From Chloroflexota bacterium (lineage in GTDB: Bacteria > Chloroflexota > Dehalococcoidia > JACPQK01), in assembly GCA_016190505.1 (NCBI GenBank), contig JACPQM010000043.1, positions 9,188 through 73,187 on the forward strand: 64,000 bases of DNA, read 5' to 3'. Of this stretch, positions 1-54,618 are shown piece by piece (position 1 is the stretch's first letter; each line of letters starts with the position of its first letter). The notes beneath the pieces are model-generated. The model saw nothing but the letters and a program-made list of their open reading frames with translations. It did no database searches and was not told the origin of the DNA. The translations under genes and the position numbers were made by a program.

Positions 1-1
1 C

Positions 2-991
2 CACCAGCGTATGGGCGAGGTGCTGGGCCTTAATGTCAACTACAGCACCAGCCTGGACAACGGCGGCGCCAGCCAGGCGCTGGGGGTTATCCTGGCCTGC
101 CTGGCCATGGACGCGGGCCTGTGTCATACGGTGGTCTGTGGCTACGGGCGCAACGCCTGGTCCCGGACCCGGCAGGCCGCCGAGAGCCGCAAGGGGTCGC
201 TGCAACAACACGCCGGCGCTGAGGAGCAACTGCCCAGGGAGTTCGGGCCCGAGTTTGGCTACTTCGGCGCCGTGGCTACCCACGCCTTTGGCGCGCAGCG
301 CCACATGCACCTCTACGGCACCACCAAGGAGCAGATGGGGGCTGTCGCCGTCAGCTTCCGCAAGCACGCCCGGCGCACTCCCTGGGCGCAGATGAAGAAG
401 CCGCTGACCATGGAGGACTACCGGCAGGGCCGGCTCATCATCGAGCCGTTCAACGTCTACGACTGTAGCCTGCGCACGGATGCCGCGGGCGCCGTGGTGG
501 TGACCTCGGCGGAGCGCGCCCGGTCCCTCAAGCAGCCTCCAGTTTACATAAGTGGCTTCGGCAGCCACAACAACCTGCGGGGCTGGTTCTTCGACGACCA
601 CATGGTGAACACGGCTGCCCGGGCCAGCGGCCAGACCGCCTTCCGCATGGCGGGGATGTCACCCGGGGACGTGGACACCGCCCAGCTCTACGATTGCTTC
701 ACATACATGGTCATTGCCGAGCTGGAGGACTATGGCTTCTGTCCCAAGGGAGAGGGTGGGCCGTTCGTGGCCTCGGGCGCCCTGGACCTGGAGGGCGTAC
801 TGCCCACCAACACCGCCGGCGGGCAGCTCTCGGAAGGCCACGTCGAGGGAATGCTCCAGATACTGGAGGCGGTCAGGCAACTGCGCCAGAAGGAGCCGCC
901 GGGGCGGCAGGTGCCCAAGGCGGAGGTGGCCCTGGTCAGCGGCCACGGCGGCAACGCCGTGTGTCATACCACCCTTATCCTGAGGAGATAG
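2..991 (+). CDS. SCP-x-type thiolase-like protein (thiolase-fold C-terminal region); 5' end cut by window edge
   Basis: The reading frame is open from nt 2 with no upstream in-frame stop. Thiolase-like C-terminal half (…GFGSHNNLRGWFFDDHMVNTAARASGQ…CFTYMVIAELEDYGFC…). It is followed 2 nt later by the usual DUF35 partner gene. Confidence 0.75.
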   Translation, partial: HQRMGEVLGLNVNYSTSLDNGGASQALGVILACLAMDAGLCHTVVCGYGRNAWSRTRQAAESRKGSLQQHAGAEEQLPREFGPEFGYFGAVATHAFGAQRHMHLYGTTKEQMGAVAVSFRKHARRTPWAQMKKPLTMEDYRQGRLIIEPFNVYDCSLRTDAAGAVVVTSAERARSLKQPPVYISGFGSHNNLRGWFFDDHMVNTAARASGQTAFRMAGMSPGDVDTAQLYDCFTYMVIAELEDYGFCPKGEGGPFVASGALDLEGVLPTNTAGGQLSEGHVEGMLQILEAVRQLRQKEPPGRQVPKAEVALVSGHGGNAVCHTTLILRR

Positions 992-993
992 AC

Positions 994-1410
994 ATGGCCT
1001 ACAACAAGCCCCTGCCCGTGCCCTCGGCGGAGTCGAAGCCCTTCTGGGAGGGCTGCCGCCGCCACGAGCTGCTGGTGCAGCGCTGTAGGGCCTGCGGCAA
1101 GCACTGGTTGCCACCTTCGGCGCTGTGCCCGGAGTGCCTGAGCACCGAATGGGAGTGGACCAGAGCCAGCGGTAAGGGGAAGGTCTTCTCCTTCGTGGTC
1201 TATCACCGGCTGTACCACCCGGGGTTCAAGGACGAGCTGCCGTACGCGGTCGCCCTCATCGAGCTGGAGGAAGGGCCGCGCATGCTGAGCAACGTGGCGG
1301 GCGACGTCAAGGCGGTCAAGTGCGACATGCCCGTCGAGGTTTTCTTCGAAGATGCCACTGAGGAGGTATCGCTACCCAAGTTCCGGGCAGCCAGTTCTGG
1401 GAGGCCCTAG
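994..1410 (+). CDS. DUF35 OB-fold/Zn-ribbon protein (partner subunit of SCP-x thiolases)
   Basis: ATG at 994, immediately after the thiolase stop. Zn-ribbon CxxC…CxxC (CRACGKHW…CPEC) followed by an OB-fold-like tail. This is the canonical thiolase–DUF35 gene pair. Confidence 0.75.
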   Translation: MAYNKPLPVPSAESKPFWEGCRRHELLVQRCRACGKHWLPPSALCPECLSTEWEWTRASGKGKVFSFVVYHRLYHPGFKDELPYAVALIELEEGPRMLSNVAGDVKAVKCDMPVEVFFEDATEEVSLPKFRAASSGRP

Positions 1411-1752
1411 GTGGGTGATTACCTCTACCACTATACATCGCGCTACTTGGCTCAGGAGGTTGTCGTTTCTGGCAAGCTCAGACCAGGTCCCGGCAGCAAA
1501 CTCTACCTATCCCAGGACAGCTATCAGCAAGGTGCCACCGCCGCGGCCAAGTTGGCCATAGTGAACAAGCCAGTAGAGGTAGTGTTTGCGATCCCCAACG
1601 AAAGGGTCGCCAACCACAGCGCTGAAGCGTTTGTGGAGAGTATCATGGGGGTAGACGGCGCTGACATCAGGCCAGGGGGTGGCACTCAAGTGTGGACTGC
1701 CGACGACATAGAGATGACCGCGATAGCGGCCTGGGGTCTGGCGTGGCCATAA
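1411..1752 (+). CDS. hypothetical protein (113 aa), atypical composition
   Basis: GTG start directly abuts the DUF35 stop. Lower GC and non-host codons (ata, cta, tat, aca). N-terminus MGDYLYHYTS…. Confidence 0.35.
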   Translation: MGDYLYHYTSRYLAQEVVVSGKLRPGPGSKLYLSQDSYQQGATAAAKLAIVNKPVEVVFAIPNERVANHSAEAFVESIMGVDGADIRPGGGTQVWTADDIEMTAIAAWGLAWP

Positions 1753-1775
1753 GAGCGTCTAGTAAGCGGTCTCCA

Positions 1776-2231
1776 ATGGGGCGACATGAGCGCGCCGCAA
1801 CCAAGGGCCCCGTAGCCGTCTCGCGTCAGTTGGGCGACCTGATTGGCGAAGTGGTTCTAGCCTTTGCCGGAGAGCGGGACTGGGGCCCCGATTCATATGA
1901 CCTGTGGTATCAGGGAGAGCCATTGTGGTTCCTTCGACAGAGCAGTGCTGTGGGGCCTCACAAACTGCTCGTGCGGAGAGTGCAAGTTGCGGCGTTTGAT
2001 ACCGACAGGGGTATGGAGCTACAGGCGATCCCTGACGCATACCTATACGACAGCGATGCCAGGAAAGCAGAGGCCTCTGTGTCCCCGGGCACGAGGCTTG
2101 AAGGTCGGCATACTGAGTCGTTGACCCAACTAGAGCAAGGCCTTGCGCATGGTAAGCTTGAAACGGCAAGAGCCAAGTTGCGGGTGATGATTGAGGCCGC
2201 ATGGAGCGTTGCCAGCGAGCTCGAGGTCTGA
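1776..2231 (+). CDS. hypothetical protein (~152 aa)
   Basis: Internal ATG at 1776 within the ORF 1692..2231. Same low-GC patch. No recognisable domain. Confidence 0.3.
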   Translation: MGRHERAATKGPVAVSRQLGDLIGEVVLAFAGERDWGPDSYDLWYQGEPLWFLRQSSAVGPHKLLVRRVQVAAFDTDRGMELQAIPDAYLYDSDARKAEASVSPGTRLEGRHTESLTQLEQGLAHGKLETARAKLRVMIEAAWSVASELEV

Positions 2232-2310
2232 GCTTTGCGCCTACTCGGCCATCAGGGTGTTCCCACAACGTGCCCAACCAGGAGTATCGCAAGTGCTGAA
2301 AGAAGAGACC

Positions 2311-4551
2311 ATGCAGGTTGACCCCATAAAGTACGAGATGTTCCTCCACCGCCTGTGGGCCATAGGCGAGGAGGGACGGATGACCATCCAGCGGGTGTCC
2401 GCCTCTCCCATCGTAGCCCAGGGGGGAGAGTGCATCAGCGGCTTCTATGACCCCCAGGGCACCCAGGTGCTGTCGTGCTCGGGCCACCTGCGCTTCGCCG
2501 GCGCTACCTCCATGGCCGTCAAGAAGATTATCGAGCTCTTCTCGGAGAACCCGGGCATCCGCGACGGCGACCAGTTCTTCCAGAACGACCCCTATGTGGC
2601 CGGCGCCCACGTCTATGACCGTCTGGTGATCAAGCCGATCTTTTACCGGGGCCGCCTGCTGGCCTGGGTGGCCACCGGCATTCACACCGCCGATACCGGC
2701 GGGGTGCTCCGGGGGGCGGCCACCCAGATCCACGAGGAGGGCGTGCGCCTGGCGGGGCTCAAGGTGGTGGAGGACGGGCGGCTGCGGGAGGACACCTTCC
2801 GAGCGATTGTGGACCAGTGTCGGGACCCCGGCTACGTGGCTCTGGACCTCAATAGCTGCATCGCGGCCAACAACGTATGCGCCCGGCGGTATCTCCAGAT
2901 TGTCGAGAAGTACGGCGCCGAGTTTGTCGAGGCCGCCGGCACCAAGACTATCCAGGACTCCGAGGCCATGGCCCGGGCCAAGCTGGAGGCCATGCCCAAC
3001 GGGACCTGGGCCGCCCGCCACTACGGCGTCGCCCGGGACAAGGAGACCGGCGAGGCCATCCCCTTCCAGGTAGTGTGTACCATGACCAAACAGGGGGACG
3101 AGCTTACCCTCGACTTTACCGGCACCAGCCGGGAGATGGCGGGCACTACCATGAACTCGACCCTCCCCTGCACCGTGGCCCAGGTGTCGGTGGCCCTCAC
3201 CGCGACCCTGTTCTGGGATATCCCCTGGTGCGATGGCAAGCTGGCCCCGGTGAAGTTCATCGCCCCGGAAGGCTCCATCATCAACTGCCGCTTCCCGGCG
3301 GCCACTGGCGGCGCACCCGAGGTGGGCCAGCAGCTCCTGCCCGCCATCTGCGAGTGCGTAGCCAAGATGCTCTACGCTGCCGGGCGCTACCAGGACGTGG
3401 CAGCATCGCTCCATGCCCGGTGGTACTCCGGGGGGCCCGGCGCCTTCTACGGGGGTCACGGTCGCCAGGGGATACCGGTGCCCCAGGGGATATATGATAG
3501 CCACGGCGCGGGCTTCGGCGCCAAGCCGGACCAGGACGGGGTCAATACCGCCGGTCGCATGCACATCCCATCGGGCGGCATCGCCGACGTGGAACGCACC
3601 GAGATGCACTACCCGATCGTTTACTTCACCCGCAACCATTGCACCGACGGCGGCGGCTGCGGGAAGTTCTCCGGCGGCGCCGGCAGCTACCGCATATACA
3701 TGGTCTACGGCTCCCAGGACCTCAGTGTGGACTACAAGCCCTATGGCGGAGTGCCCGAAGGGGGCTACGGGCTGTTCGGCGGCCAGCCGTCCGGCACCGG
3801 CGGCGTCCGGGCGCTCTTCAAATGCCCCGACGTCATGAAGAAACTGCAGGCTGGAGACTACCCGACCACCACCGACGAGCTGGAGGCAAGCTGGGGCCAG
3901 GCAGTGGTGTCCAAAGGCGGCCCGACCCGCATACCCCTGCCAGAGTTCAGCCTGGTGGCTGATTTCGTGAGCGGCGGCGGGGGCTATGGCGACCCGCTGG
4001 AGCGCGACCCACACAAAGTGGTGCGCGAGCTCCGGGATGGCCTGGTGTCCGCCCACGCGGCCGCCAACTACTACGGTGTGGCCCTGCACCCTGACGGGCG
4101 GAACCCGGACGAAAGCGCGACTCAGCGGCGGCGGCAGGCGCTGCGCCAGGAACGGCTGGCCCAGGGCAAGCCGCACAGTGGCAGCACCTCGTCGGTCCCG
4201 CGGGGACGACCAACGCGCTCGCTGTTGAAGTTCCACGAGTACCTGGCCATCGCGGCAGACGGTGGTGCTCTCCTGGTCTGTTGTCGCTGCGGGCACGTCC
4301 TTTGCCAGGCCGGCGAGAACTATAAGGACTACGCGCTCCGGCGGCAGAGGGACATCGAGGAGCTTACCGGCCGCCGGCTACCCCACGGCCAACCATATCT
4401 GGCTGTCTGGCAGGAGTATATCTGTCCGGGCTGTGCCACACTTCTCCAGGTGGACGTGTGGTGTCCGTCGCTGGGAGACGGGGCGCCGCTGTGGGACACC
4501 CGCCTGGACCTGGGTAAGACTGTAAGCGCGTCGCGTGGGAAAGGGGGCTAA
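2311..4551 (+). CDS. hydantoinase B / acetone-carboxylase alpha-like (HyuB family) with C-terminal Cys-rich Zn-ribbon extension
   Basis: N-terminus MQVDPIKYEMF…IGEEG is typical of the HyuB/oxoprolinase-B family. The C-terminal CCRCGH…CPGC Zn-ribbon extension is of the acetone/acetophenone carboxylase alpha type. An alternative GTG at 2293 lies 9 nt after an AGGAG. Confidence 0.8.
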   Translation: MQVDPIKYEMFLHRLWAIGEEGRMTIQRVSASPIVAQGGECISGFYDPQGTQVLSCSGHLRFAGATSMAVKKIIELFSENPGIRDGDQFFQNDPYVAGAHVYDRLVIKPIFYRGRLLAWVATGIHTADTGGVLRGAATQIHEEGVRLAGLKVVEDGRLREDTFRAIVDQCRDPGYVALDLNSCIAANNVCARRYLQIVEKYGAEFVEAAGTKTIQDSEAMARAKLEAMPNGTWAARHYGVARDKETGEAIPFQVVCTMTKQGDELTLDFTGTSREMAGTTMNSTLPCTVAQVSVALTATLFWDIPWCDGKLAPVKFIAPEGSIINCRFPAATGGAPEVGQQLLPAICECVAKMLYAAGRYQDVAASLHARWYSGGPGAFYGGHGRQGIPVPQGIYDSHGAGFGAKPDQDGVNTAGRMHIPSGGIADVERTEMHYPIVYFTRNHCTDGGGCGKFSGGAGSYRIYMVYGSQDLSVDYKPYGGVPEGGYGLFGGQPSGTGGVRALFKCPDVMKKLQAGDYPTTTDELEASWGQAVVSKGGPTRIPLPEFSLVADFVSGGGGYGDPLERDPHKVVRELRDGLVSAHAAANYYGVALHPDGRNPDESATQRRRQALRQERLAQGKPHSGSTSSVPRGRPTRSLLKFHEYLAIAADGGALLVCCRCGHVLCQAGENYKDYALRRQRDIEELTGRRLPHGQPYLAVWQEYICPGCATLLQVDVWCPSLGDGAPLWDTRLDLGKTVSASRGKGG

Positions 4552-4552
4552 C

Positions 4553-5734
4553 GTGACCAAGGCTCTGGAAGGCATCACTGTCCTGGAGGTGGCCTCCTAT
4601 GTCACCGGCCCTTACGCCGGCGCACTCTTGGGCGACCTGGGGGCGGAGGTCATCAAGATCGAGTCGCCGCCCCACGGCGACCCCCACCGGGGCCATGGCC
4701 GGGACGAGGCACTCTACCACCCCAACTTCAGGGCGCTGAATCGCAACAAGAAGAGCCTCACTCTGAACCTGCGTGACCCCGAAGGCAAGCACATCCTGAT
4801 GCGTCTGATCAGGAAGGCGGACGTGCTCATCGAGAACTTCCGGCCGGGGGCCATGGACCGGCTGGGGCTGGGCTACAACGACCTGCGCCAGCTCAATCCC
4901 AGGCTCGTCTATTGCTCCATCTCCGGCTACGGGCAGAGCGGCCCGTACCGGGACAAGCCCGGATACGACACCATGGGGCAGGCCTTCAGCGGCATGCTCA
5001 GCCTGCTCACCGACGTGAGCGACCCCAAGCCTGTGGGCGTCTCCGTGTCCGACCACGTGACCGCCGTCTTTGCCGCCTACGGCATTCTGGCCGCTCTCTT
5101 GGCCCGAGAGCGGACGGGCCAGGGGCAACAGGTGGAGACTTCGTTGCTCCAGGCCACCACGTCTTTCATCGAGTCATACGCCACCAGCTACCTGAGCGAT
5201 GGCGAGGTTGCCTCCCGCGAGAGCCGTACCCGGACGGTACCCATCTGGTCCTTCGTTTGTGGTGACGGGCAGCCTCTGGTGATACACCTTTCGGCGCCGC
5301 CCAAGTTCTGGGAGGGCCTGGCCAAGGCGGTTGAGCGTCCCGATCTGATCACGGACCCCCGGTTCAAGGAGCGCCGCTTGCGCTGGGAGAATCACGCCGA
5401 GCTTACCCGCATCCTGGAGCAGGAGTTCCGCAAGAAGCCGCGGGACTACTGGCTCAAAGCTCTGGAAGAGCAAGACGTGCCCAGCGCCCCGATCTACACC
5501 ATAGACCAGGTGTTCCAGGACCCCCAGGTCAAGCACCTGGGCATCCCGGTAGAGGTGAAACATCCCAAGATGGGGCCCAACCGGTTTGTGGGCAGCGCCG
5601 TTAACCTCTCGGGCACGCCGGCTGTGATGGCCCTGGCGGCGCCGATGGTGGGCGAACATACCGAGGAGATTCTCGGTAGCCTGGACTGCACGCCGGAAGC
5701 CATCAAGGCCCTCCGGGCGAAGGGCGCTGTCTAG
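4553..5734 (+). CDS. family III CoA-transferase (CaiB/BaiF/formyl-CoA transferase-like)
   Basis: GTG at 4553 follows a GGGGG SD and gives the typical N-terminus MTKALEGITVLEV…GPYAG. An alternative in-frame GTG at 4535 overlaps the upstream stop. Conserved family III core. Confidence 0.85.
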   Translation: MTKALEGITVLEVASYVTGPYAGALLGDLGAEVIKIESPPHGDPHRGHGRDEALYHPNFRALNRNKKSLTLNLRDPEGKHILMRLIRKADVLIENFRPGAMDRLGLGYNDLRQLNPRLVYCSISGYGQSGPYRDKPGYDTMGQAFSGMLSLLTDVSDPKPVGVSVSDHVTAVFAAYGILAALLARERTGQGQQVETSLLQATTSFIESYATSYLSDGEVASRESRTRTVPIWSFVCGDGQPLVIHLSAPPKFWEGLAKAVERPDLITDPRFKERRLRWENHAELTRILEQEFRKKPRDYWLKALEEQDVPSAPIYTIDQVFQDPQVKHLGIPVEVKHPKMGPNRFVGSAVNLSGTPAVMALAAPMVGEHTEEILGSLDCTPEAIKALRAKGAV

Positions 5735-5812
5735 CCAGCGGCGCCGTGGGGCGCTATACTGCCTAACGTCGAGGAGCAGTGAGGGTGCTGCGTTGCCCGG
5801 GGGGGCAAGAAT

Positions 5813-5886
5813 GGGGACCCCTTTCGAGGGGGTTCGGGGGTTTCCCCCGAATCTAATCCCCCCTCTCCTATGCCTAGGAGAGGGGG
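5813..5886. terminator. cluster of three GC-rich hairpins after the CoA-transferase gene, including a 12-bp perfect stem cccctctccta/taggagagggg
   Basis: Inverted repeats are seen directly in the sequence. There is no U-tract, so this may be an intrinsic terminator or a leader RNA structure. Confidence 0.4.
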
Positions 5887-5948
5887 TCAGGGAGTGAGGT
5901 CGCATAACGGCGACAACCGTTGGTACTGAGGAGTATGCAGGAGGTAAC

Positions 5949-6791
5949 ATGCCAGGCATAGGCGCCATAGACATCCTGAACCACTTCTACACCCCGGCGT
6001 CCAAGGCCCGGCGGGACGCCGTGGCCCACGAAGAGCTGGTCTGCCGCATGGAGACCGCCCTGGGCGGGTTCCCGGCGCACTCACCTGAGAAATGGCTGGA
6101 GCTTATGGACGAGGCCGGTGTGGACAAGACGTTCTTCGCCCAGACCGCGGCCTTCTCCTACTTCCAGCGCCGGCTCTACGGGCAGACCACTATAGACGAG
6201 ATCTATGCCGCCACCAAGGTGGCGCCAGGGCGGTTCGTGGGCATTGCCAGCTACAACCCCTTCCGGATCAAGGACAGCCTCCACGACATAGACCGGGCGG
6301 TGCAGGACTGCGGGTTCAAGGGGGTGTTCGTCCACATTTACGGCTTCGACATCCCGCTGGACGACCGCAAGATGTACCCCCTGTACGCCAAGTGCCAGGA
6401 GCTGGGCGTGCCGGTCATCATGCAGGTGGGCTACGTGCTGGAGGCCATGCCCAGCGAGCACGGGCGTCCCATTTACCTGGACCGCATCGCCCTGGACTTC
6501 CCCGAGTGCAAGCTGGTGGGCGCCCATACCGGCTATCCCTGGTGCGAGGAGCTTATCTCCATCTGCTACAAGTATGACAACGTCTACCTGGGGGCCGATG
6601 CCCACATGCCGCGCTACTGGGAGCCCACTGTGGTGCGCTTCATCAACTCTCGGGGCGCCGACAAGTGCCTGTGGGGCACCAACGGCCTTGACTTCAAGCG
6701 CATGCTTACCCAGATTGACGCCCTGGAGCTGAAGGAGGAGAACAAGCGCAAGCTCCTGCGAGACAACGCCATCAAAGTCTTCAAGCTGTAG
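5949..6791 (+). CDS. amidohydrolase-2 family metal-dependent hydrolase/decarboxylase (ACMSD-like TIM barrel)
   Basis: AGGAGG SD before ATG 5949. Amidohydro_2-like sequence (…KGVFVHIYGFD…VIMQVGY…GAHTGYPW…). Confidence 0.7.
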   Translation: MPGIGAIDILNHFYTPASKARRDAVAHEELVCRMETALGGFPAHSPEKWLELMDEAGVDKTFFAQTAAFSYFQRRLYGQTTIDEIYAATKVAPGRFVGIASYNPFRIKDSLHDIDRAVQDCGFKGVFVHIYGFDIPLDDRKMYPLYAKCQELGVPVIMQVGYVLEAMPSEHGRPIYLDRIALDFPECKLVGAHTGYPWCEELISICYKYDNVYLGADAHMPRYWEPTVVRFINSRGADKCLWGTNGLDFKRMLTQIDALELKEENKRKLLRDNAIKVFKL

Positions 6792-6836
6792 GGGCGGGCC
6801 CCTGTGCCCGCCCAGGGGCGGGCGGGAGGCCCGCCC
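6792..6836. terminator. GC-rich stem-loops (gggcggg/cccgccc) immediately after the amidohydrolase stop
   Basis: Two overlapping inverted repeats seen in the sequence. Confidence 0.4.
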
Positions 6837-6873
6837 TCACGCCTGTAACGCTGGACTTAGGAAAGGAGAAAGG

Positions 6874-7878
6874 ATGCCCAACTTCTATGACCAGTGGTTG
6901 AACTACTGGACCGAGGAGCAGGAGGAGCGGGCCAAGGCACGCAAGTGGATCCACGAGGAAGAGCGCCAGTGGGTCCGCACCCGCCAGGACTACAAGACCG
7001 CCCTGCTGTGCAGCCGGGAAAACGGCTTCGCCACCGCTGGCGCGGCCACCATATCCATTATCCCCCCGGGGTGGCACAGTGGCGCCCATAGCCACGGGGA
7101 GGAGGCAATCTGGGTTCTGTCAGGGAAGGGGTTCACCCTGATGGACGGCGCGCGCTACGACTGGGAGAAGGGTAGCTGCGTGTTCATGCCTTTCGGCTCC
7201 ATCCACCAGCACTTCAACGACGGCGACGAGGAAGTCCAGTACCTCTCATTCACCCAGTTGGCGCTGGAGCGGTTCGCGGGCATGGCCAAGTTCACCCAGT
7301 TCGAGGATGTCGGCCAGACCGCTCGCGGTGAGCCGAGAGGCATCGCCATGGCCGAGACCGACGTCCATCCTGAGTACGGTCGCATAGTGCTGCACTTCAA
7401 GGACGCCCCCTCGTCCGTAGGTGAGGACCAGGCCATACGCATGGCCAAGAGGACGGACGAGTTTGCCCAGACGGTGGCCAAGGAGATGAGGACCCCCGGT
7501 AGCCAGGGGCACCGCTCCCGCGTCATCCAGTTCATGGGCGATCCGGAGAACGGGTTCAAGGCCCGAGAGGTGGAGATCACCGGCATCCTGTGCGACGAGC
7601 CGGGCAAGCACTCTGGGAGGCATGCCCACATGGAGGCCCTGCTCTACGTTCTTCAAGGCGAGGGCTACTCCATAGTGGACGAGGAGAAGGTCCCCTGGAA
7701 GCAGGGCACCCTGTTCCACGTGCCTGGCCCGCAGTCAGTCCACCAGCACTTCAACACCAGCAAAGTGGAGGCGCAGCACCTGCGCATTCACTACGGCCTG
7801 CGGTCCCACGTCTTCCAGCCCATCGCCAGGCGGGTGTTCCCCTACAAGTACTACGAGTTCGGCCAGTACCAGTCGTAA
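6874..7878 (+). CDS. bicupin ring-cleavage dioxygenase (gentisate 1,2-dioxygenase-like)
   Basis: AAAGGAGAAAGG SD. Two cupin halves, each with His-rich metal motifs (GWHSGAHSHGEE… and …GRHAHMEALLYVLQGEGY). Confidence 0.7.
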   Translation: MPNFYDQWLNYWTEEQEERAKARKWIHEEERQWVRTRQDYKTALLCSRENGFATAGAATISIIPPGWHSGAHSHGEEAIWVLSGKGFTLMDGARYDWEKGSCVFMPFGSIHQHFNDGDEEVQYLSFTQLALERFAGMAKFTQFEDVGQTARGEPRGIAMAETDVHPEYGRIVLHFKDAPSSVGEDQAIRMAKRTDEFAQTVAKEMRTPGSQGHRSRVIQFMGDPENGFKAREVEITGILCDEPGKHSGRHAHMEALLYVLQGEGYSIVDEEKVPWKQGTLFHVPGPQSVHQHFNTSKVEAQHLRIHYGLRSHVFQPIARRVFPYKYYEFGQYQS

Positions 7879-7900
7879 GGTCCCACGGTCCAAAAAAGTG

Positions 7901-7928
7901 GGGGCGCCCCGATCCATCGGGGCGCCCC
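7901..7928. terminator. hairpin ggggcgccccg-N6-cggggcgcccc after the bicupin gene
   Basis: 11-bp perfect inverted repeat 23 nt after the stop. Confidence 0.45.
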
Positions 7929-8018
7929 TACGATTTCGCGCCTCGGGCCTCCCCGAATCTCGGCGTTCCCACCCAGTGCTGCTTGCTAACGCGAGTTCGA
8001 CAGGCACTGACCCGTCGC

Positions 8019-8444
8019 GACCCAATGTAGAGCCATGAACCGCGTTGTTGCCCGTAGGGGCCCCGACGCGTCGGGGTGCCCGCCCCGGTGGGGTGCGGGG
8101 AACACGTTGTTCACGCCGTACGAGACGCGGCAAGGGCGAGCGGCGTTTTCGTAGCTTGAGTTCAGCAGCTTGGTTCATTGAAAGGACCCCGACGCATCGG
8201 GGGAGGAAGCAATCTAATGACGGCGCGATGGGTCCCGACATGTCGTGACTACGCTGCGCTTTCAATGAACCGACCGTCCCGTCATTGCGAGCCGCAGCGA
8301 AGCAATCTCCGGCCTGTGTGCGCATCATAAGGTTGCTTCGTCGTCCTTCGCCGGAAGGACTCCTCGCAATGACGACACATGGCTTCGTCGCTGTGCTCAT
8401 TTCAACGAAACGCGCCATCTCGGTTCATTGCTCTACATTGGGTC
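8019..8444. repeat. MITE-like element bounded by 23-bp terminal inverted repeats (gacccaatgtagagccatgaacc … ggttcattgctctacattgggtc), with internal nested palindromes
   Basis: The TIRs match at 22 of 23 positions. The interior carries the motifs ggttcattg/caatgaacc and gtcattgcgag…ctcgcaatgac. Confidence 0.45.
8281..8373. repeat. palindromic repeat unit gtcattgcgag-gcgaagcaa…ttgcttcg-ctcgcaatgac (copy 1)
   Basis: A near-identical unit occurs at ~47266-47345. Confidence 0.5.
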
Positions 8445-8948
8445 CCGATGCCTCGGGGCTGAGTACCCCGCCAGCCGCTCCCTCAGCACCTGGAGGTTCG
8501 TCACGTCTTCCCGGTTGTATTGAAGCAGCGTAGCCAGCGCTTCAGGGTCGCCGTGCCTTTGGTACCGTCGCCACAGCACCACTGCGTCCCACCCGCTGAT
8601 GCCCTGCAACTGGCGGGGAATGCCCAGTTGCTGCTCCACCGCCTTGAAACCGCCCTTCAGGTTGCAGCGCCAGCAGTCGTACATCAGGTCATGGTGGCCG
8701 GCGACAGTCTCCAGGTCAATGCCCAGGGAGCCATGGATGAAGGGCAGGTCAAACCGGCTGCCGTTGTAGGTATAAACCGTCTGCACATCACGCAATGCCT
8801 GAAGCAGGCTATGCCTGGTGACCTCTCTGCCCACCAGTTGCACCAGCCTGCTGTCACTGCCATTGACCAGGTAGATGCCGATGACGGTTATCTCCGCATA
8901 AGAGCAGGACAGTCCAGTGGTCTCGATGTCAAGGTAAGCGTCTGCCAA
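8433..8948 (-). CDS. RNase-H-like 3'-5' exonuclease domain protein (YprB/DEDD-like)
   Basis: DIETTGL acidic motif near the N-terminus plus YNGSRFD…H-DLMYD motifs. Low-GC segment. 2-nt gap to the upstream GIY-YIG gene. The last 4 codons and the stop (8433-8444) lie inside a repeat-element terminal inverted repeat. Confidence 0.6.
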   Translation of the reverse strand: MADAYLDIETTGLSCSYAEITVIGIYLVNGSDSRLVQLVGREVTRHSLLQALRDVQTVYTYNGSRFDLPFIHGSLGIDLETVAGHHDLMYDCWRCNLKGGFKAVEQQLGIPRQLQGISGWDAVVLWRRYQRHGDPEALATLLQYNREDVTNLQVLRERLAGYSAPRHRDPM

Positions 8949-8950
8949 GA

Positions 8951-9541
8951 CTAATCTCGTCCTTCGAAAGAGCTGGTGAAGTGACCCAAATTGGTATTGT
9001 ATGTTAGATTGCTAACGGTACGCAACAGCAAAGCTTCGAGATTGGTCCTTAAATCCTTGTCATCTACTCTGTAAAGCGAATAATACATGGCCAGATCGCG
9101 GATTTTGGGCTTGTCTTTGGCCAGAGCAGGGCCGACGCGAATTGGAACTGGAACCCGCCGGCCAAGTGTTTGCGACACTTCCACACGGAAGTTCTGTGCT
9201 TGCCCAATGTAAAGGGCGTTCCCGGCGGAGTCGTAGATCAAGTAGATCCCCGCACAATCTGGTATTCGTGAATTACTATCAGGTATTGGACATATCTCGC
9301 AGACCGCCTGCACTGTGTAGCCAAACCTCCGTCGGGTTAGGCTCTGGAGGCAACCTAACAACGCCTTTTTTTGCGGAACCTTCTTGCCGCGGAGGTAATC
9401 GCTCATATTGGGTAGTTCCTGGCCACAGTCGTGTGCGAAATCACTCATGGTCTTGCTCTTGTAGCCCGCAAGATCGCGTAGCACCTTCAAGAATTGAACG
9501 TTCGGATCGTCTGCCTTGGGAAGGTCTGTCTTGATTGCCAT
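8951..9541 (-). CDS. XRE-type HTH + GIY-YIG nuclease domain protein
   Basis: C-terminal half GIYLIYDSAGNALYIGQAQNFRVE… is a GIY-YIG core. The N-terminal region is helix-turn-helix-like (…MSDFAHDCGQELPNMSDYLRGKKVP…). Markedly lower GC than flanks. Confidence 0.7.
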   Translation of the reverse strand: MAIKTDLPKADDPNVQFLKVLRDLAGYKSKTMSDFAHDCGQELPNMSDYLRGKKVPQKKALLGCLQSLTRRRFGYTVQAVCEICPIPDSNSRIPDCAGIYLIYDSAGNALYIGQAQNFRVEVSQTLGRRVPVPIRVGPALAKDKPKIRDLAMYYSLYRVDDKDLRTNLEALLLRTVSNLTYNTNLGHFTSSFEGRD

Positions 9542-9705
9542 TTGATGTCCTCCTCGATCAAGGCACCGCGCCTCTGCAACACCCCTATGTCAAACTGAAT
9601 GTTTGTTGTCGTAGATTCCTGCCATCTTCTTCGCCGTCTCCAGCATCTCCTTGCGCAGCTCTGGTGGCTCCAGCACCCCACCTTCTCCTCCCAGCCCAGG
9701 ACCCA

Positions 9706-9735
9706 GGGGTGAAGCATCCGCCGATGCTTCACCCC
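9706..9735. terminator. 13-bp perfect hairpin ggggtgaagcatc-cgcc-gatgcttcacccc at the 3' end of the DapB-like gene (convergent with the GIY-YIG gene)
   Basis: Seen directly. It overlaps the stop codon at 9735-9737. Confidence 0.5.
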
Positions 9736-10706
9736 TACATTTTGTTCAAGGGTGCGAAGTGCGCCTGGACCAGGTCGGCCATGGTGTGCAGGCCGGGCGG
9801 CGCCTTCAGTAGCCAGGGGATGCAGTTGGCCATCACGGCCACCGTGCCCAGGTCGCCGTGCACGCCCGGCGCGATGGTCATCTTGATGGGTGGGACTCCG
9901 TCTATGTCCACGGAGTCCGCTTCCTGGGCGCCGGCGTAGGCCTCGAACACCAGCCGGACGCGCACCTGGCCGCCTGATGTGCCAGTCGCCTCCTGGCGCA
10001 GGCCCAGGGCCGTACCTGTTGACTCCACGGGAAGGGGTGCCCCGGCGTTGATTGAGTCCAGCCGCCAGCCCAGGGCTGAGGCCAGCAGGGCGATGGACTG
10101 CTCCAGCCCCACGTGGCCCCCGATCTGGCCCGACTTCATCTGGCGCTTGAACTCGGCCAGCGGTAGGCCCGCGCCGACCTTCTTCAGGAAGGCCAAGCGC
10201 CGGCGGGAGGCGTCCAGCGTGCGCCGCACGGTGACAGATTTCACCTCCTGGCAGGCGGTGGTCAGGACCATGGGCAGCGCGTCCATCAGGAAGCCCGGGT
10301 TGATCCCCGTCCCCAGCACCGCCACACCGTGTACCATGCCCAGCCGGTCTACTTCGGCGGCCAGTTCCGGAGCGGACAGATAGGGGTAGCACAGCTCCTC
10401 ACAAGTGGAGAGCACCGGCAGGTGTGCCTCTACCAGAGCGGCGATCTGGGGGAAGGTGTCCTTGAGGTACGAGCGGGTGGCCAGTATGGCCAGGTCGGCC
10501 TGGAGGCCGGCCAGCGCCGCCTCGATGGTGGGCCGGACCGGCACCCCCAGCACTGGCTGGTCCAGCAGCCCGCCCAGGTCCACCCCCGCCTTGTCCGGCG
10601 CCGGATCAACGGCGCCCATGATGGTGGCGCCCCGGGCCAGCACGCCCCGGGCGATGGCCTGGCCCATTTCGCCCAGGCCGACGATGATTACTTTGAGCGA
10701 TGGCAT
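9735..10706 (-). CDS. DapB-like NAD(P)-dependent oxidoreductase (dihydrodipicolinate-reductase / 2,4-diaminopentanoate-dehydrogenase family)
   Basis: N-terminal Rossmann motif KVIIVGLGEMGQAIARG. 323 aa DapB-like architecture. Confidence 0.65.
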   Translation of the reverse strand: MPSLKVIIVGLGEMGQAIARGVLARGATIMGAVDPAPDKAGVDLGGLLDQPVLGVPVRPTIEAALAGLQADLAILATRSYLKDTFPQIAALVEAHLPVLSTCEELCYPYLSAPELAAEVDRLGMVHGVAVLGTGINPGFLMDALPMVLTTACQEVKSVTVRRTLDASRRRLAFLKKVGAGLPLAEFKRQMKSGQIGGHVGLEQSIALLASALGWRLDSINAGAPLPVESTGTALGLRQEATGTSGGQVRVRLVFEAYAGAQEADSVDIDGVPPIKMTIAPGVHGDLGTVAVMANCIPWLLKAPPGLHTMADLVQAHFAPLNKM

Positions 10707-10904
10707 GACCGAACACCCCCTGACGAGACTCCTCCGCCTGTACCGGGACTCAAAGAGACCTCAGCCCGACACGGCCTCCTACAGTGGCTCTCGTAGCAGT
10801 GCAAGCTGGGGAGGCGGCCCACCCTCTCCGCAGGCGGAGAGGGCAGGGTGAGGTGGCAGCCCGACCGCGACGGCAGCGCCCGTAGCCATATGCCGACTAG
10901 CGTA

Positions 10905-15892: not shown

Positions 15893-18436
15893 ATGGATGG
15901 CCAGGGCACCGTAGTCACGCCTTCCTTCTGTGTCGAGTGCTACAATCACTGCCCGGTGATTGTGCACGTTGACAACGGCACCATTGTCCGCGTGGAGGGT
16001 AACTCGCTTACTCCCTACACCCAGGGCAGGCTGTGCCCCAAAGGGCAGGCCGCCCTTATGCGCCTGTATGACCCCAACCGGCTGCGGGTCCCTATGAAGC
16101 GGACCAATCCCGACAAAGGCATCGGGGTTGACCCCCGGTGGCAGGAGATAACCTGGGAGGAGGCCCTGGAGACCATCGCGGGCAGAATGGCCCAGCTCAG
16201 GGCCACTAACCCCCGTGGGCTGAAGGTGCCCACGCGGGAGCACCCGCGCGTGGCCATGGCCCAATGCTGGGGACTCGCCTTTGGCACCCACTACGTCGGC
16301 TCCGGGGCGGGGACCGGAGGTGGCGTGCAGTGCGGCAACGCCGCTCACACCCTGGGCACCCAGATATGGGGCTCATTCCACGACTGGCCGGAGTACCGGT
16401 ACACCCGCTATGCGCTGTTCATCGGCACCAACACGGGATTCGAGTCCGACCGGGCATTGCCCATGGACGCCAAGCGCATCGCGGATGCACGCCTGCAAGG
16501 GATGAAACTGGTGGTGGTAGACCTGCGCTTTACGCACACCGCTGCCAAAGCCGACGAATGGATACCCATCCGGCCCGCCACCGATGGTGCCTTCGTGCTT
16601 GGTCTGGTCAACCTGCTGGTCAACGAGCTGGGCATCTACGATGCGCAGTTTCTCCGGCAACACACCAATGCGCCCTATTTGATTGGTCCCGACGGCCACT
16701 ACGTGGTTGATCCCGTGTCCGGCAAGCCGCTCATATGGGACGCCGTGGCAAACGGGGCCAGGCCGTTCGACGTTTTCGGCGGCGACGAGGTGAGCGGCAG
16801 GGCAGCCCTGGAGGGAGAATACGTAGTCAACGGAGTGCCCTGCCGTCCCGCCTTTCAACTGCTGAAGGACCGGGTCAGGGAGTACACTCCGGAGAAAGTG
16901 GAGCAGATCACCAGCGTGCCCGCGGCCACCGTGCGGCGGGTGGCCCGGGAGTTTGGGGAGAGCGCCCAGATCGGCGCCACCATTGAGATTGAGGGGCAGC
17001 GTTGGCCGCTCCGGGGCTCGCTGGTGGCCTACTACCGGGGCACGCAGGGCCACGTGCACTCAACCCTTACCACGCAGGCCATCTACACCCTCCAGATGAT
17101 GGTGGGGGCGATGGGGGTCCCCGGCGGCACCATGCGCTTGCCCACCGGCACGCGCATACCCTCCGCGCCACTGCGGGCGCGTCCCGATGGTACTGTGGCC
17201 TACGACCTTACCCAGCACGTGCCCTTTGCGCCACCGGTGTGGCCTCCTACGGAATACCACCTGGGCAACTACCTGCCCTTCGACGTGGTGGGGGCCTCTC
17301 ATCTCCACTACGTCACCGGGGCCGGACCGGACAAGTGGGGCCTGGACTCGAACGTCATGGTCTTCGCCGACAACTCCAATCCCGTGCTGGTAGTAGGCGA
17401 CCAGAAGGTGATGGACGCCTATCACCAGAACGCCTTTGTCGTGGTAATGGACCAGTACCTTACCGAGACCGCCGAGCTGGCCGACATAGTGCTTCCCTCC
17501 GACTTCCAGCTTGAGAGGCACAGCGTGGTGGCGGTGAAGGCCGGGGCCAGCTATCTTGGCTTCGTTTACTCCCGGCCCGCCGTCAAGCGACCGTACCAGG
17601 CCAGAGACTGGTGGGAGGTGGCCCTGGAGCTGGCGGAGCGGGTAGGCTTCCTCTACGGTGAAGGCGGCTTCAACTACTGGGTCAACGCCACTTTCCGCCT
17701 CCGGCCGGAGTACGCCCTCAGCCTGAACGAACGCCCCGACTCGTTCCAGGTCCAGGAGAGGATTGTCAAGAATATCATCGGCGAAGAAGGCTGGCAGAAG
17801 CTGGTGACTGAGGGGCTTTATGCCTACCGAGTGCCTGCCGCGGAGAAGTACCTGCCCTATCGGGGTGCCCGGCTGGCCTTCTACAACGAAGCTCTGCTGA
17901 AGACTGGCCAGGACCTGGTGCGTGGGATGAAGGAAAGTGGGGCCTACGACAAGGTGGCCACCGCGCTCGACCTTTCAGACTATGATGCCCTGCCCAAGTG
18001 GAAGCCTGGTCCGATTCACCATGAGGACCCAAAGTACGACCTCTTCGCAGTAAACGGCAAGTCCGTGCTGTTTACCTTCGGGCGTTCCGCGTTCAACGCC
18101 TGGCTTATGGAGCTGGCGGAGAGAGACCCCTATGTGCTGAAAGTGTGGGTCCACCGTGATACAGCCAGGCGGAAGGGTATCCAGGATGGGCAGGCCATCT
18201 GGGTGGAGTCGAAGACAGCGCGAGTGCGGGGCGAGGCCAAGGTGACCCAAGGCATGCACCCGGAGTGCGTTGGGATTGTGGGGTGCTTGGGACACTGGTG
18301 CGACCATCCCATTGCCGGGGGCAAAGGAGTCCACTTCAACTCCTTGATAGACCTGAGCCTCCAGAACACTGACCCTATTTGTGCCACCATGCAGGGCTCT
18401 GCGGTGCGCGTGAAGATCTACCCCGACGCGCGGTAA
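15893..18436 (+). CDS. molybdopterin (bis-MGD) oxidoreductase catalytic subunit, tandem paralog
   Basis: CVECYNHC…C(PKG) Fe-S motif. Colinear and clearly homologous to the upstream gene (GIGVDPRWQEITWEEALETIA…, LVNELGIYDAQF…). Confidence 0.85.
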   Translation: MDGQGTVVTPSFCVECYNHCPVIVHVDNGTIVRVEGNSLTPYTQGRLCPKGQAALMRLYDPNRLRVPMKRTNPDKGIGVDPRWQEITWEEALETIAGRMAQLRATNPRGLKVPTREHPRVAMAQCWGLAFGTHYVGSGAGTGGGVQCGNAAHTLGTQIWGSFHDWPEYRYTRYALFIGTNTGFESDRALPMDAKRIADARLQGMKLVVVDLRFTHTAAKADEWIPIRPATDGAFVLGLVNLLVNELGIYDAQFLRQHTNAPYLIGPDGHYVVDPVSGKPLIWDAVANGARPFDVFGGDEVSGRAALEGEYVVNGVPCRPAFQLLKDRVREYTPEKVEQITSVPAATVRRVAREFGESAQIGATIEIEGQRWPLRGSLVAYYRGTQGHVHSTLTTQAIYTLQMMVGAMGVPGGTMRLPTGTRIPSAPLRARPDGTVAYDLTQHVPFAPPVWPPTEYHLGNYLPFDVVGASHLHYVTGAGPDKWGLDSNVMVFADNSNPVLVVGDQKVMDAYHQNAFVVVMDQYLTETAELADIVLPSDFQLERHSVVAVKAGASYLGFVYSRPAVKRPYQARDWWEVALELAERVGFLYGEGGFNYWVNATFRLRPEYALSLNERPDSFQVQERIVKNIIGEEGWQKLVTEGLYAYRVPAAEKYLPYRGARLAFYNEALLKTGQDLVRGMKESGAYDKVATALDLSDYDALPKWKPGPIHHEDPKYDLFAVNGKSVLFTFGRSAFNAWLMELAERDPYVLKVWVHRDTARRKGIQDGQAIWVESKTARVRGEAKVTQGMHPECVGIVGCLGHWCDHPIAGGKGVHFNSLIDLSLQNTDPICATMQGSAVRVKIYPDAR

Positions 18437-47120: not shown

Positions 47121-47213
47121 CTCCTTTCAATGAACCAAGCCCCCATGTCATTCTGGAGTCCCGACGCATCGGGGCGAAGAATCCGCGCCCCCTGGTCTAG
47201 CTTGGCGCCGGGG
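47121..47213. repeat. second copy of the 10905-type dispersed repeat
   Basis: Sequence similarity seen directly. Confidence 0.5.
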
Positions 47214-47265
47214 AGTCGGACAGGACGACGTATCAGAGTCGTGCCCCTGGCACCGGGCATGCCCC

Positions 47266-47345
47266 GTCATTGCGAGCGCAGCGAAGCAACCTTCTGCCAA
47301 GTTGGCGGCTGTAGGTTGCTTCGTCGCTCCGCTCCTCGCAATGAC
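47266..47345. repeat. palindromic repeat unit gtcattgcgag…ctcgcaatgac (copy 2)
   Basis: Matches 8281-8373. Confidence 0.5.
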
Positions 47346-47404
47346 ATACAATCCCCCGGTGCGTCCGAGGTCCTCGCAACGACGGAATGCGCACGCCGCG
47401 AGCC

Positions 47405-47442
47405 GGTTCATTGCTCTACATTGGGTCCCGACGGCTCGGGAC
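47405..47442. repeat. ggttcattgctctacattgggtcccgacggctcgggacc repeat (same as the right TIR at 8422-8461)
   Basis: 23 nt identical to 8422-8444, followed by the same type of CCCGA-N-TCGGG hairpin. Confidence 0.5.
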
Positions 47443-47567
47443 CTGTGGAACTCGCAATGACGCCTAGCGGCGCCAATCGACCCGATAGGTGAGTCCCGAC
47501 AGGTCGGGACTACAGCCACGGATCACGGGGCGACGAATATGGGGGTTTGCCTCCCCTCAGCGTCGTC

Positions 47568-54031: not shown

Positions 54032-54618
54032 GGCCCGCTTCTCGCCGCAGCCCGTTGCCCCCACCGGCGGCCCCGTTCACCTTGGAGGAGCCAGGCAAGC
54101 CGCTCCTGTTCGACGCCGACCGGGGCCTGCCCGACGAGGTCACCGCCCGCTACAGCGTTAAGACGTTGGTGGCGTCGCTAACGCCGGACCTGCCAGCCGC
54201 TCGCAAGGCGTGCGCCGACTTTGGCCGGGGTGCCATGGGGCTCACCATAGAGCTGGCCGACAGCAAGTACCAGGACCGGGCCGGGGAGATGATCGAGAAG
54301 GTCTACCTCAAGACGGGCATCTCGTTCCCCCACCGCCTCCAGCGCTACGCCGAGCTATTCCTCATTGCCGTCCGGCCCCTGGACCGCTGGAACGTGACCT
54401 GCGCTACGCCGGACAAGCTGACCATCGAGGTCTCCGGCTGCGCCGTGTTCCAGGCGATGAAAGTGAAGGGCCTGTCCTACAAGGAACTGCCCTGTTTGGA
54501 GCTATGCCTGGGAGGCTTCCGCGTGGCCGCCGACAAGACGGGCGACAAGGTGCGCCTGGACGTGCCCAAGACCCTGCCCAGAGACGGGCGCTGCCAGTTC
54601 GTGCTCGCAGTGGCGTAG
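54028..54618 (+). CDS. hypothetical protein (196 aa), possibly ATC-hydrolase-like
   Basis: The ATG overlaps the ferredoxin stop (ATGA) and is preceded by a GGGAGGG SD. No confident domain call. Confidence 0.5.
   Translation: MRPASRRSPLPPPAAPFTLEEPGKPLLFDADRGLPDEVTARYSVKTLVASLTPDLPAARKACADFGRGAMGLTIELADSKYQDRAGEMIEKVYLKTGISFPHRLQRYAELFLIAVRPLDRWNVTCATPDKLTIEVSGCAVFQAMKVKGLSYKELPCLELCLGGFRVAADKTGDKVRLDVPKTLPRDGRCQFVLAVA

Follow-up and report, generated by a model that had tools for sequence, protein, structure and literature searches.

Two adjacent nuclease-fold genes in a Dehalococcoidia genome are probably the surviving middle of a WYL-regulated nuclease operon

RESULTS

Organization of the locus

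The minus strand of a 64-kb stretch of contig JACPQM010000043.1, from a Chloroflexota bacterium of the class Dehalococcoidia, contains the two genes studied here; 'the window' hereafter means the whole stretch analysed (mean GC content 63%, standard deviation 3.9%). The first gene, giy (8951-9541, ATG start), specifies a 196-aa protein with an N-terminal helix-turn-helix (HTH) and a GIY-YIG fold; 2 nt further on lies exo (8433-8948, TTG start), which specifies a 171-aa exonuclease core of the DEDD type. An earlier note on this DNA had described two co-oriented open reading frames (ORFs) 2 nt apart, which were recovered at precisely the positions it gave, and had read them as a probable small nuclease module, horizontally acquired, or a selfish homing-type element. 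The analysis presented here indicates, with a probability of about 0.78, that a WYL-regulated nuclease operon left a ~1.75-kb fragment here, of which the pair is the surviving middle, and that the two genes are not a self-contained system. The coordinates of the features are collected in Table 1.

The earlier note had considered the whole of segment 8433-9541 to be strikingly GC-poor. This was true of giy, with a GC content of 50.6% and a GC content at third codon positions (GC3) of 0.57; only 2.3% of the 591-nt segments of the window have a GC content of 53% or less. It was not true of exo, whose GC content of 60.5% (GC3 0.77) is less than one standard deviation from the window mean. The drop is thus essentially limited to giy, for which the proposal of a foreign, acquired composition holds, and is not shared by the segment as a whole. 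The GC3 values of both genes lie below those of the neighbouring genes (0.85-0.89).

The block carrying giy and exo is absent from a collinear relative

The sole close comparator found, a metagenome contig with a GC content of 0.616 (L098), is collinear with positions 1-10709 of the window at 79-84% nucleotide identity, and the proteins flanking the site are 91% (amidohydrolase), 89% (cupin) and 78% (DAP_DH) identical. The convergent stop codons of the cupin and DAP_DH genes are ~84 bp apart in L098 versus 1,856 bp in the window, and L098 contains neither giy nor exo. Nucleotide homology ends at ~7906-7975 on the left and restarts at ~9728-9747 on the right, being lost over ~7976-9727. Since L098 bears the same flanking genes with only ~84 bp between them, this block is an indel, and giy, exo, the repeats and the right-hand hairpin all sit on it. 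The view of the segment as an insert was therefore borne out by an empty site in a related contig. The intergenic gap of L098 contains one bidirectional hairpin, GTAGGGGCGGGTTTCAAACCCGCCCCTAC, between both stop codons, and no scar; its counterpart in the window remains beside the cupin gene (7901-7928). No convincing target-site duplication was found at the ends of the insert, where the resemblance between TCCCACCC and TTCACCCC is weak and was not counted. The direction of the event would be insertion in the window rather than deletion in L098, judging from the composition of the block, its repeats and the truncated pseudogene described below.

exo belongs to an operon with a WYL regulator and a variable slot

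In all five metagenome contigs inspected, exo lay in the same arrangement: a divergent AAA gene, a WYL/WCX regulator gene, variable genes, exo and a variable nuclease. The genes 3' of exo in these contigs encode a 398-aa Cas4-like PDDEXK protein, a NERD-UvrD_C helicase, or a DUF2779 or NOV_C protein. Among the genome loci, a WYL gene preceded exo in 14 of 80, most of them with the divergent AAA gene (many of the others have no upstream sequence), and a Cas4-like PDDEXK gene followed exo in ~35. The parent operon is widespread in Dehalococcoidia and other Chloroflexota. Its regulator matches the HTH_11, WYL and WCX models as well as CRISPR-associated WYL models. PADLOC recognized only generic modules among the parent-operon proteins (an IetA/TRIP13-like AAA+ protein, a CRISPR-associated WYL protein, Cas4 and a DRT-associated NERD helicase), and no defined system. 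When the window was searched by tblastn, no homologues of the AAA, WYL, Zn-ribbon, PDDEXK, NERD or DUF2779 proteins were found elsewhere in its 64 kb.

The slot between the regulator gene and exo varied in 19 loci from 47 nt to 3 kb and contained 0-7 genes, the 40 ORFs falling into 27 sequence clusters. Most slot proteins had no Pfam match; among ten tested, one contained HEAT repeats and another gave a sub-threshold match to NucS_C, while the called-gene tables list a UDG-family protein, a NOV_C protein and Zn-ribbon proteins. Exo often follows the last slot gene closely (gaps of -14 to ~+16 nt where tight), a pattern that the 2-nt gap between giy and exo fits.

Regulators with winged HTH (wHTH), WYL and WCX domains include CapW, BrxR, PafBC, DriD and SiwR. 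CapW, PafBC, DriD and SiwR are reported to bind single-stranded DNA (ssDNA) and to control adjacent genes for defence or the damage response (PMC10693628). The parent regulator has the same domains, and a palindrome flanks its gene. In contrast to CapW-, BrxR- or PafBC-type loci, the window has no more than ~43 codons of the regulator gene, frameshifted, beside the decayed putative operator, and the parent gene set itself (hypervariable slot, DEDDy exonuclease, Cas4-like nuclease and divergent AAA+ protein) was not found described in a limited literature search.

A regulator remnant and a putative decayed operator lie upstream of giy

The 193 bp between giy and the DAP_DH gene hold, on the minus strand from 9718 to 9590, a sequence with homology to the WYL/WCX regulator gene over the final ~43 codons of that gene. 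This remnant (psi-WYL; GC content 0.57) matched the 3' ends of WYL genes in ~20 loci by tblastx and in 11 loci by blastn, with 74-80% identity. It reads ...PWVLGWEEKV / VLEPPELRKEMLETAKKMAGIYDNKHSV / stop and bears a 1-nt deletion relative to all homologues.

In intact loci, a sequence of the form TTGACA-N-TGTCAC comes right after the WYL gene, overlapping its stop codon. Of 19 loci, 11 have the strict palindrome TGACA-N5-7-TGTCA at a distance of 25 nt or less from the WYL stop codon, on its 3' side, and nine have it 9-134 nt upstream of the WYL gene; in total it occurs 47 times in 1.01 Mb of exo loci. The 64-kb window contains no strict copy, only the degenerate TTGACATAGGGGTGTTGCA at 9575-9593. 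From its position and recurrence, the palindrome would be the regulator's operator, overlapping a -35 box. An intact WYL regulator gene with an adjacent palindrome, the putative operator, was thus found in related loci and not in the window. In L001, L014, L017, L039, L084 and other loci, the palindrome is found at two places, between the divergent WYL and AAA genes and immediately 3' of the WYL stop codon. The two sites suggest that the WYL protein may regulate its own gene and, from the second site, control the downstream cargo and exo genes.

giy and exo are not found together elsewhere

A search for co-occurrence of the two genes, proposed in the earlier note, failed from either side: no giy relative adjoined exo in any of 85 non-redundant exo loci, and no PF13482 gene lay near giy relatives in the six distinct contexts available. 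These contexts were an island edge by an integrase fragment; an island of ORFans and a transposase; an island with DpnI, SLFN_AlbA_2 and DUF3644; a site beside a type II CBASS (cyclic-oligonucleotide-based antiphage signalling system) operon; a site upstream of RelA_SpoT, Mrr_cat and PIN genes; and a row of DinB-like stress genes. No neighbour of the giy relatives was conserved across the six. A conserved upstream partner was considered and rejected, as an all-against-all BLAST of the ~190-220-aa upstream ORFs revealed no similarity.

In L181-L183, some 480 nt separate the giy-family gene (3344-3892 in L181) from a convergent and complete type II CBASS operon (Patatin, DncV-like NTase, ThiF-type E1 and JAB proteins). 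The giy-family gene also adjoins QueC and Nuc_deoxyrib_tr genes and is thus in a defence island.

The two genes also evolve differently, exo being highly conserved and tracking the GC content of its host, giy being rare and AT-rich. The truncation of a WYL-variable slot-exo operon to the present block accounts for their adjacency in the window. Together with the psi-WYL remnant and decayed operator upstream, these counts leave no support for a dedicated module. The suggestion of a candidate anti-phage system fared no better: in PADLOC-DB v2, giy matched UzuA with an E-value of 0.0058 over 23 residues and exo matched a CRISPR-associated DEDDh protein with 7.6e-5 over 33 residues, both at the level of motif noise.

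Repeats and hairpins at the edges of the block

The earlier note had proposed that a repeat resembling a miniature inverted-repeat transposable element (MITE) supplies the end of exo, and this was upheld. The terminal inverted arms of the repeat, 8004-8047 and 8416-8459, are 44 nt long and 80% complementary, with nested inverted repeats at 8172/8259 and 8280/8363. The final 7-8 codons of exo, with its stop codon, come from the right end of the repeat, which sits where the nuclease gene 3' of exo normally lies. A composite element of ~300 nt occurs twice in the window in the same orientation (8166-8459 and 47122-47445), the arm 8421-8457 being 94.6% identical to 47404-47440. Terminal inverted repeats and this second copy were thus seen within the window, and no target-site duplication of the repeat was identified.

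Regions 8004-8459 and 47122-47455 are both built from modular intergenic repeats: GGnCCCGAnGCnTCGGGG hairpins, GGTTCATTGAAAG / CTTTCAATGAACC, and CGTCATTGCGAG...CTCGCAATGACG. Four copies of the GGnCCCGAnGCnTCGGGG hairpin lie in 7904-8458 and others near 43928 and 57684. A 93-nt piece (8281-8373) matches positions 16175-16268 of the Dehalococcoidia locus L065 with 76% identity, and the repeat module is therefore shared between genomes.

At the right edge, a strong bidirectional hairpin had been reported. A perfect 14-bp hairpin does exist (9705-9736), although it is terminator-like on the plus strand only, where no gene ends. It spans the junction between insert and host, one arm (9705-9718) lying inside psi-WYL and the other (9723-9736) abutting or overlapping the stop codon of the DAP_DH gene (9735-9737), and is a junction-associated inverted duplication. 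It is now placed as a terminator of the DAP_DH gene would be, and may act as one. The hairpin could be the trace of a fold-back or template switch in the course of illegitimate recombination, or could have been selected later as a terminator.

exo specifies a predicted core-only exonuclease related to MrfB

The identification of the second protein as an exonuclease with a DEDD/RNase H fold was supported. Exo matches PF13482 (RNase_H_2) with 133.6 bits (cutoff 22) over profile positions 1-164 of 165, residues D7, E9, D67, Y144 and D148 are invariant in the family alignment, and the nearest solved structure to the family is that of Bacillus subtilis MrfB (8un9; E-value 1.3e-5, whole core aligned). 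A metagenome protein collection yielded 5,237 homologues, mostly from Dehalococcoidia; those with the highest identity (75-84%) are 160-180 aa long and belong without exception to the PF13482 family, and close homologues bear the Joint Genome Institute label 'YprB with RNaseH-like and TPR domain'. A scan of a species-representative genome collection found relatives in 170 stretches, nearly all from Dehalococcoidia or other Chloroflexota. The C-terminal tail past 'LRERL' varies in all homologues. Over 85 loci the GC content of the gene follows that of the host (from 0.36 to 0.61), and the family would therefore be a resident of its host lineages. Recent horizontal transfer was rejected for the family on the same grounds; the copy in the window nevertheless sits on an indel.

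MrfB (YprB), which acts in mitomycin-C repair in B. subtilis, is a 3'-5' DNA exonuclease with the DEDDh residues D107, E109, D172, H258 and D262 (PMC11194089). Exo matches its full catalytic core and keeps the acidic DEDD residues. It differs in being a bare 171-aa core, with neither the N-terminal extension nor the TPR domain, and in having Tyr as the fifth catalytic residue (Y144-x3-D148, thus DEDDy) where MrfB has His258 (PMC11194089). No gene for the MrfA/YprA (DUF1998) helicase was found beside exo among its neighbours in the window or in the five metagenome neighbourhoods, no YprA profile having been run on the 64-kb window. Neither the C-terminal TPR domain nor the adjacent MrfA/YprA helicase of the MrfAB system was thus found, and the usual partners of exo are, unlike those of MrfB, a WYL regulator and Cas4-like nucleases. 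Another relative is the TM0106 family of RecB-like nucleases (TIGR03491), in which a Cas4-like PD-(D/E)XK domain precedes a C-terminal RNase_H_2 domain. Residues 86-157 of Exo match the C-terminal part of TIGR03491, and the succession of exo and a Cas4-like PDDEXK gene in the ~35 loci resembles a split version of this fusion; the operon, however, has separate genes in the opposite order, and the PDDEXK half is absent from the window. By sequence, Exo is best classed as a core-only DEDDy, MrfB-like PF13482 exonuclease, a known kind of enzyme.

giy belongs to a GIY-YIG family that bears Glu in place of the catalytic Arg

A word-indexed search with Giy returned only the protein itself, from a Chloroflexi metagenome-assembled genome. 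An exhaustive HMMER search found 109 cluster representatives with E-values of 1e-3 or lower (53 at 1e-10 or lower), the best member being 45% identical and most members being ~180 aa long and matching over their full length; the possibility of a true ORFan was therefore discarded. The proposal of an XRE-like HTH followed by a GIY-YIG core stood at the level of family and structure. Giy alone scored 17.1 bits against PF01541, under the cutoff of 22.6 and over the first hairpin only, and gave no significant match to a Pfam HTH model. Among 31 family members, GIY-YIG was matched by 16 (E-value 0.1 or lower), HTH_31 by nine (best 3e-10), HTH_3 by six and HTH_26 by four, and the family profile matched the N-terminal domain of UvrC (1yd6) at 5.7e-7. 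In an AlphaFold2 model (pLDDT 85, pTM 0.64), residues ~77-187 matched UvrC GIY-YIG domains (1yd6) with Foldseek TM-scores of 0.66-0.73, and the N-terminal helices matched C.Esp1396I, C.BclI, DdrO and ClgR at 1.8-2.6 Å over 54-60 residues, and also HipB. A five-helix XRE/Cro-type HTH (residues ~13-73) is thus recognizable from both the family profiles and the model, and is followed by a UvrC-like GIY-YIG fold (~77-187). Some relatives carry two or three tandem copies of the HTH.

The part of the earlier proposal that needs qualification concerns the active site. The hallmarks of the GIY-YIG superfamily (the GIY and YIG motifs, the metal-binding Glu, the Asn and the fold) are all present, G98, Y100, Y111, G113, E169 and N182 being conserved in 95-99% of the family (Y and G 98-99%, E169 95%, N182 98%). 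Arg, Tyr and Glu form the conserved active site of GIY-YIG nucleases, the Arg being R27 in I-TevI and R39 in UvrC (PMC2241918). In the HMMER alignment, Glu121 of Giy (the YIG Tyr +10) stands opposite R39 of Thermotoga maritima UvrC, in a register checked by Y19, Y29 and Y43, the point mutants named in PDB entries. This column contains Glu in 93% and Arg in 4% of 99 family members, whereas all 46 canonical GIY-YIG proteins recovered as distant matches have Arg. At essentially all conserved columns the copy in the window has the consensus residue of the family, and it is therefore not a decayed one. On these grounds Giy is filed as a UvrC-like protein with a GIY-YIG fold rather than as a demonstrated GIY-YIG nuclease. 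No description of a family combining an XRE HTH with a Glu-for-Arg GIY-YIG variant was found in a limited literature search. The gene was AT-richer than its host in all six other loci, by 3-10 GC points; it is rare and AT-rich in every host examined, and is the more foreign part of the fragment.

The N-terminal GIY-YIG domain of UvrC/Cho (1yd6, 1ycz) is the best profile and fold match to the C-terminal half of Giy and has in common with it the motif PGvY...YvGkAknL and the metal-binding Glu and Asn. Giy differs in having Glu121 for R39 and Thr125 for Y43, in its N-terminal XRE HTH, in lacking the UvrB-binding, RNase H and HhH domains, and in the location of its family's genes in mobile or defence islands. 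GIY-YIG homing endonucleases (I-TevI, I-BmoI) and the type IV enzymes that join a winged helix (wH) to GIY-YIG likewise combine a DNA-binding module with GIY-YIG, in stand-alone genes of patchy distribution (PMC3664794 and PMC11037411). Giy has, however, the reverse domain order of the homing enzymes and lacks the catalytic Arg, and its HTH is of the XRE type and not the winged helix of the type IV enzymes. Its gene has no intron or intein context, and no relatives were found in phages, plasmids or viral contigs by pattern-based scans, which are of limited sensitivity for so divergent a protein. No exo was found in viral contigs either, and a viral, plasmid or phage origin was rejected. Actinobacterial fusions of a DEDD exonuclease to GIY-YIG (NF005906/PRK07883) pair the same two kinds of domain and matched Giy weakly, as did P0253 and P0262; their exonuclease is, however, of the PF00929 and not the PF13482 family and is fused to a GIY-YIG domain that has the canonical Arg, and the score of Giy is far under the family cutoff (20 versus 495 bits).

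The giy-family search also returned P0139, a protein of 2,969 aa in which 23 separate stretches match residues 81-126 of Giy (the GIY-YIG hairpin region). This may be a giant protein with tandem GIY-like hairpins or a mis-called ORF.

DISCUSSION

The preferred reading is that giy and exo were left over from a larger operon. When intact, this operon comprises a divergent AAA+ ATPase gene, a wHTH-WYL-WCX regulator gene flanked on both sides by the TGACA-N5-7-TGTCA palindrome, a hypervariable cargo slot, a gene for an MrfB-like DEDDy exonuclease, and one for a Cas4-like PD-(D/E)XK or other nuclease or helicase. The fragment in the window keeps, on the minus strand, the last ~43 codons of the regulator gene (frameshifted), the decayed putative operator with its -35 box, giy as the cargo, and exo; the MITE-like repeat has replaced everything 3' of exo, and the whole lies between a convergent pair of metabolic genes that directly adjoin each other in a related genome. 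It plausibly came from, or long resided in, a moderately GC-rich Chloroflexota genome, given the GC contents of psi-WYL (0.57) and exo (0.605). By analogy with characterized relatives, the parent regulator would sense ssDNA arising from damage or infection and would then control expression of the cargo genes, exo and the gene of the partner nuclease; ends or nicks made by an endonuclease would be resected by Exo in the 3'-5' direction. The fragment, having no regulator, ATPase or partner nuclease, would express at most two orphan proteins: an intact 3'-5' exonuclease core and an HTH DNA-binding protein without the canonical GIY-YIG arginine. Because it lacks that arginine, Giy would be either a non-canonical nuclease or a protein that binds or senses DNA.

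Several points weigh against this reading. The comparison depends on a single comparator, L098, and the polarity of the indel is not based on phylogeny; no target-site duplication or recombinase was found to explain how the fragment arrived; the sample of giy contexts is small (six distinct loci); and the operator was assigned from position and recurrence only. Neither ORF is broken, and giy, which conforms to the consensus of its family, has a strong Shine-Dalgarno sequence and lies 2 nt from exo; the pair could therefore still be expressed and selected together, and the label 'relic' understates this. Finally, the role of the parent operon could, by analogy, be either repair or defence.

The same data bear on other explanations. 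If the block were ancestral to the site and had been deleted from L098, exo (with giy) would be a resident pair of the lineage; the GC content of exo, close to that of the host, the single comparator and the lack of a target-site duplication would all agree with this. Yet the interval between the stop codons in L098 is scarless and holds one clean bidirectional hairpin, and the block itself contains, besides MITE-like repeats and an AT-rich gene, the pseudogene of a truncated regulator, has GC3 values under those of its neighbours and holds an exo that elsewhere normally lies in a different, conserved operon, all of which make a loss from L098 quite improbable. It is less probable still that the two genes form a self-contained, horizontally acquired system, anti-phage, anti-plasmid or selfish, in which an HTH-guided GIY-YIG protein would nick DNA and the DEDD exonuclease would degrade it. 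Besides the failure to find the pair in 85 exo loci or six giy-family contexts, psi-WYL and the operator indicate an adjacency inherited from a larger operon with a freely varying slot, the catalytic Arg is replaced by Glu, the PADLOC matches are noise, and the GC3 values are unequal (0.57 versus 0.77). Such a system would fit with the absence of the pair from L098, with a spacing that suggests co-translation, with the location of giy relatives in defence or mobile islands, and with the known fusions of a DEDD exonuclease to a UvrC-like GIY-YIG domain, to which the weak matches of Giy (NF005906, and P0253 and P0262, which join PF00929 to PF01541 or PF27096) belong.

The remaining alternatives concern the nature of giy. 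It is rather unlikely that giy is a free-standing selfish or defence gene, akin to homing endonucleases or type IV restriction enzymes, that entered the cargo slot on its own and shares no function with exo. Its sporadic distribution, GC content 3-10 points under that of the host locus everywhere, lack of a conserved neighbour and proximity to an integrase fragment, transposases, CBASS, DpnI/SLFN and RelA_SpoT/Mrr/PIN genes would be expected of such a gene, as would the strong conservation of the two Tyr, the Glu and the Asn in the active site and the two-domain logic, which resembles that of I-TevI-type and wH-GIY-YIG type IV enzymes (PMC3664794 and PMC11037411). Against it, 93% of members have Glu where the catalytic Arg (PMC2241918) would stand, the HTH precedes the GIY-YIG domain, the reverse of the order in homing enzymes, searches of viral contigs, phages and plasmids gave no relatives, and there is no intron or intein context. 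Alternatively, and still only tentatively, Giy may be a transcription factor or sensor in which an XRE-HTH repressor is joined to a degenerate GIY-YIG domain that binds damaged DNA or ssDNA or oligomerizes, and which may regulate its own gene and exo after the loss of WYL. The match of its N-terminal half to restriction-modification controller proteins, DdrO, ClgR and HipB (~2 Å root mean square deviation), the tandem HTH copies of some relatives, the nearly invariant Arg-to-Glu change and the position of relatives at defence-island borders, a common site of regulators, all point this way. The almost invariant metal-binding Glu, both Tyr and the Asn would be unusual in a dead enzyme domain, and neither an operator nor a conserved regulated neighbour was identified.

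Returning to the parent operon, the DEDDy exonuclease and Cas4-like nuclease genes might bracket the slot as a cassette-like landing pad for diverse DNA-acting genes, mostly ORFans, that serve defence or the damage response; the Glu-for-Arg HTH-GIY-YIG gene would be one such cargo and a new functional variant of GIY-YIG, with altered catalysis or a role as a DNA sensor. We regard this as speculative. The relic itself is locally modest, being a decayed piece of an operon and unlikely to work as a two-gene system. It points, however, to a conserved cluster of uncultivated Dehalococcoidia with a regulator of the ssDNA-sensing type, a recurrent operator, a hypervariable slot and nucleases, which, in a phylum where genetics is almost lacking, would be a natural place to seek novel functions in DNA repair or phage defence. 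The giy family, with Glu for the catalytic Arg, would offer a clean test of whether the fold cuts DNA in a different way or has turned into a DNA-binding sensor. The locus also advises caution, since tight spacing and foreign composition can mimic a 'module' when the adjacency was inherited from an operon with a variable slot.

Table 1. Features of the giy-exo locus and its borders (window coordinates)
Feature	Position	Strand	Remarks
cupin gene	6874-7878	+	left flank, convergent with the DAP_DH gene
Native hairpin 3' of the cupin stop codon	7901-7928		12 pairs, 11 of them G-C; counterpart of the L098 hairpin
Indel block, ~1.75 kb	7976-9727		GC 0.57; absent from the collinear relative L098
MITE-like composite repeat	8004-8459		terminal arms 8004-8047 / 8416-8459; part recurs at 47122-47445
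exo	8433-8948	-	predicted MrfB-like DEDD(y) 3'-5' exonuclease core (PF13482); D7, E9, D67, Y144 and D148 intact; TTG start
giy	8951-9541	-	XRE-type HTH and UvrC-like GIY-YIG fold; in variable cargo slot; Glu121 replaces the catalytic Arg
Shine-Dalgarno sequence of giy, GGAGGA	9548-9553	-	6 nt 5' of the giy ATG; direct sequence reading
Degenerate operator copy, TTGACATAGGGGTGTTGCA	9575-9593	-	TGACA-N5-7-TGTCA palindrome, putative WYL operator; overlaps a -35-like TTGACA
psi-WYL remnant, ~43 codons	9590-9718	-	from tblastx, blastn and alignment; 1-nt frameshift near 9677
Perfect 14-bp hairpin, right junction	9705-9736		arms 9705-9718 and 9723-9736
DAP_DH gene	9735-10706	-	right flank; stop codon 9735-9737

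Other features of the window

Two further regions differ in composition from their surroundings. Two large adjacent genes on the minus strand (23647-30140; GC content 0.55-0.58) encode a 989-aa protein resembling DUF1156/N6-adenine methyltransferases and a 1,174-aa SNF2/DEAD helicase with a C-terminal NOV_C domain; we take this pair to resemble the DrmMI/DrmD part of a class 1 DISARM-like (defence island system associated with restriction-modification) or related restriction system. The lowest-GC patch of the window (54477-56442; 0.50-0.54) contains genes for a ParA/MinD-like AAA_31 ATPase (55190-56080, minus strand, 296 aa) and an unannotated 138-aa ORF (54757-55173, minus strand), and may be the remnant of the partition module of a mobile element.

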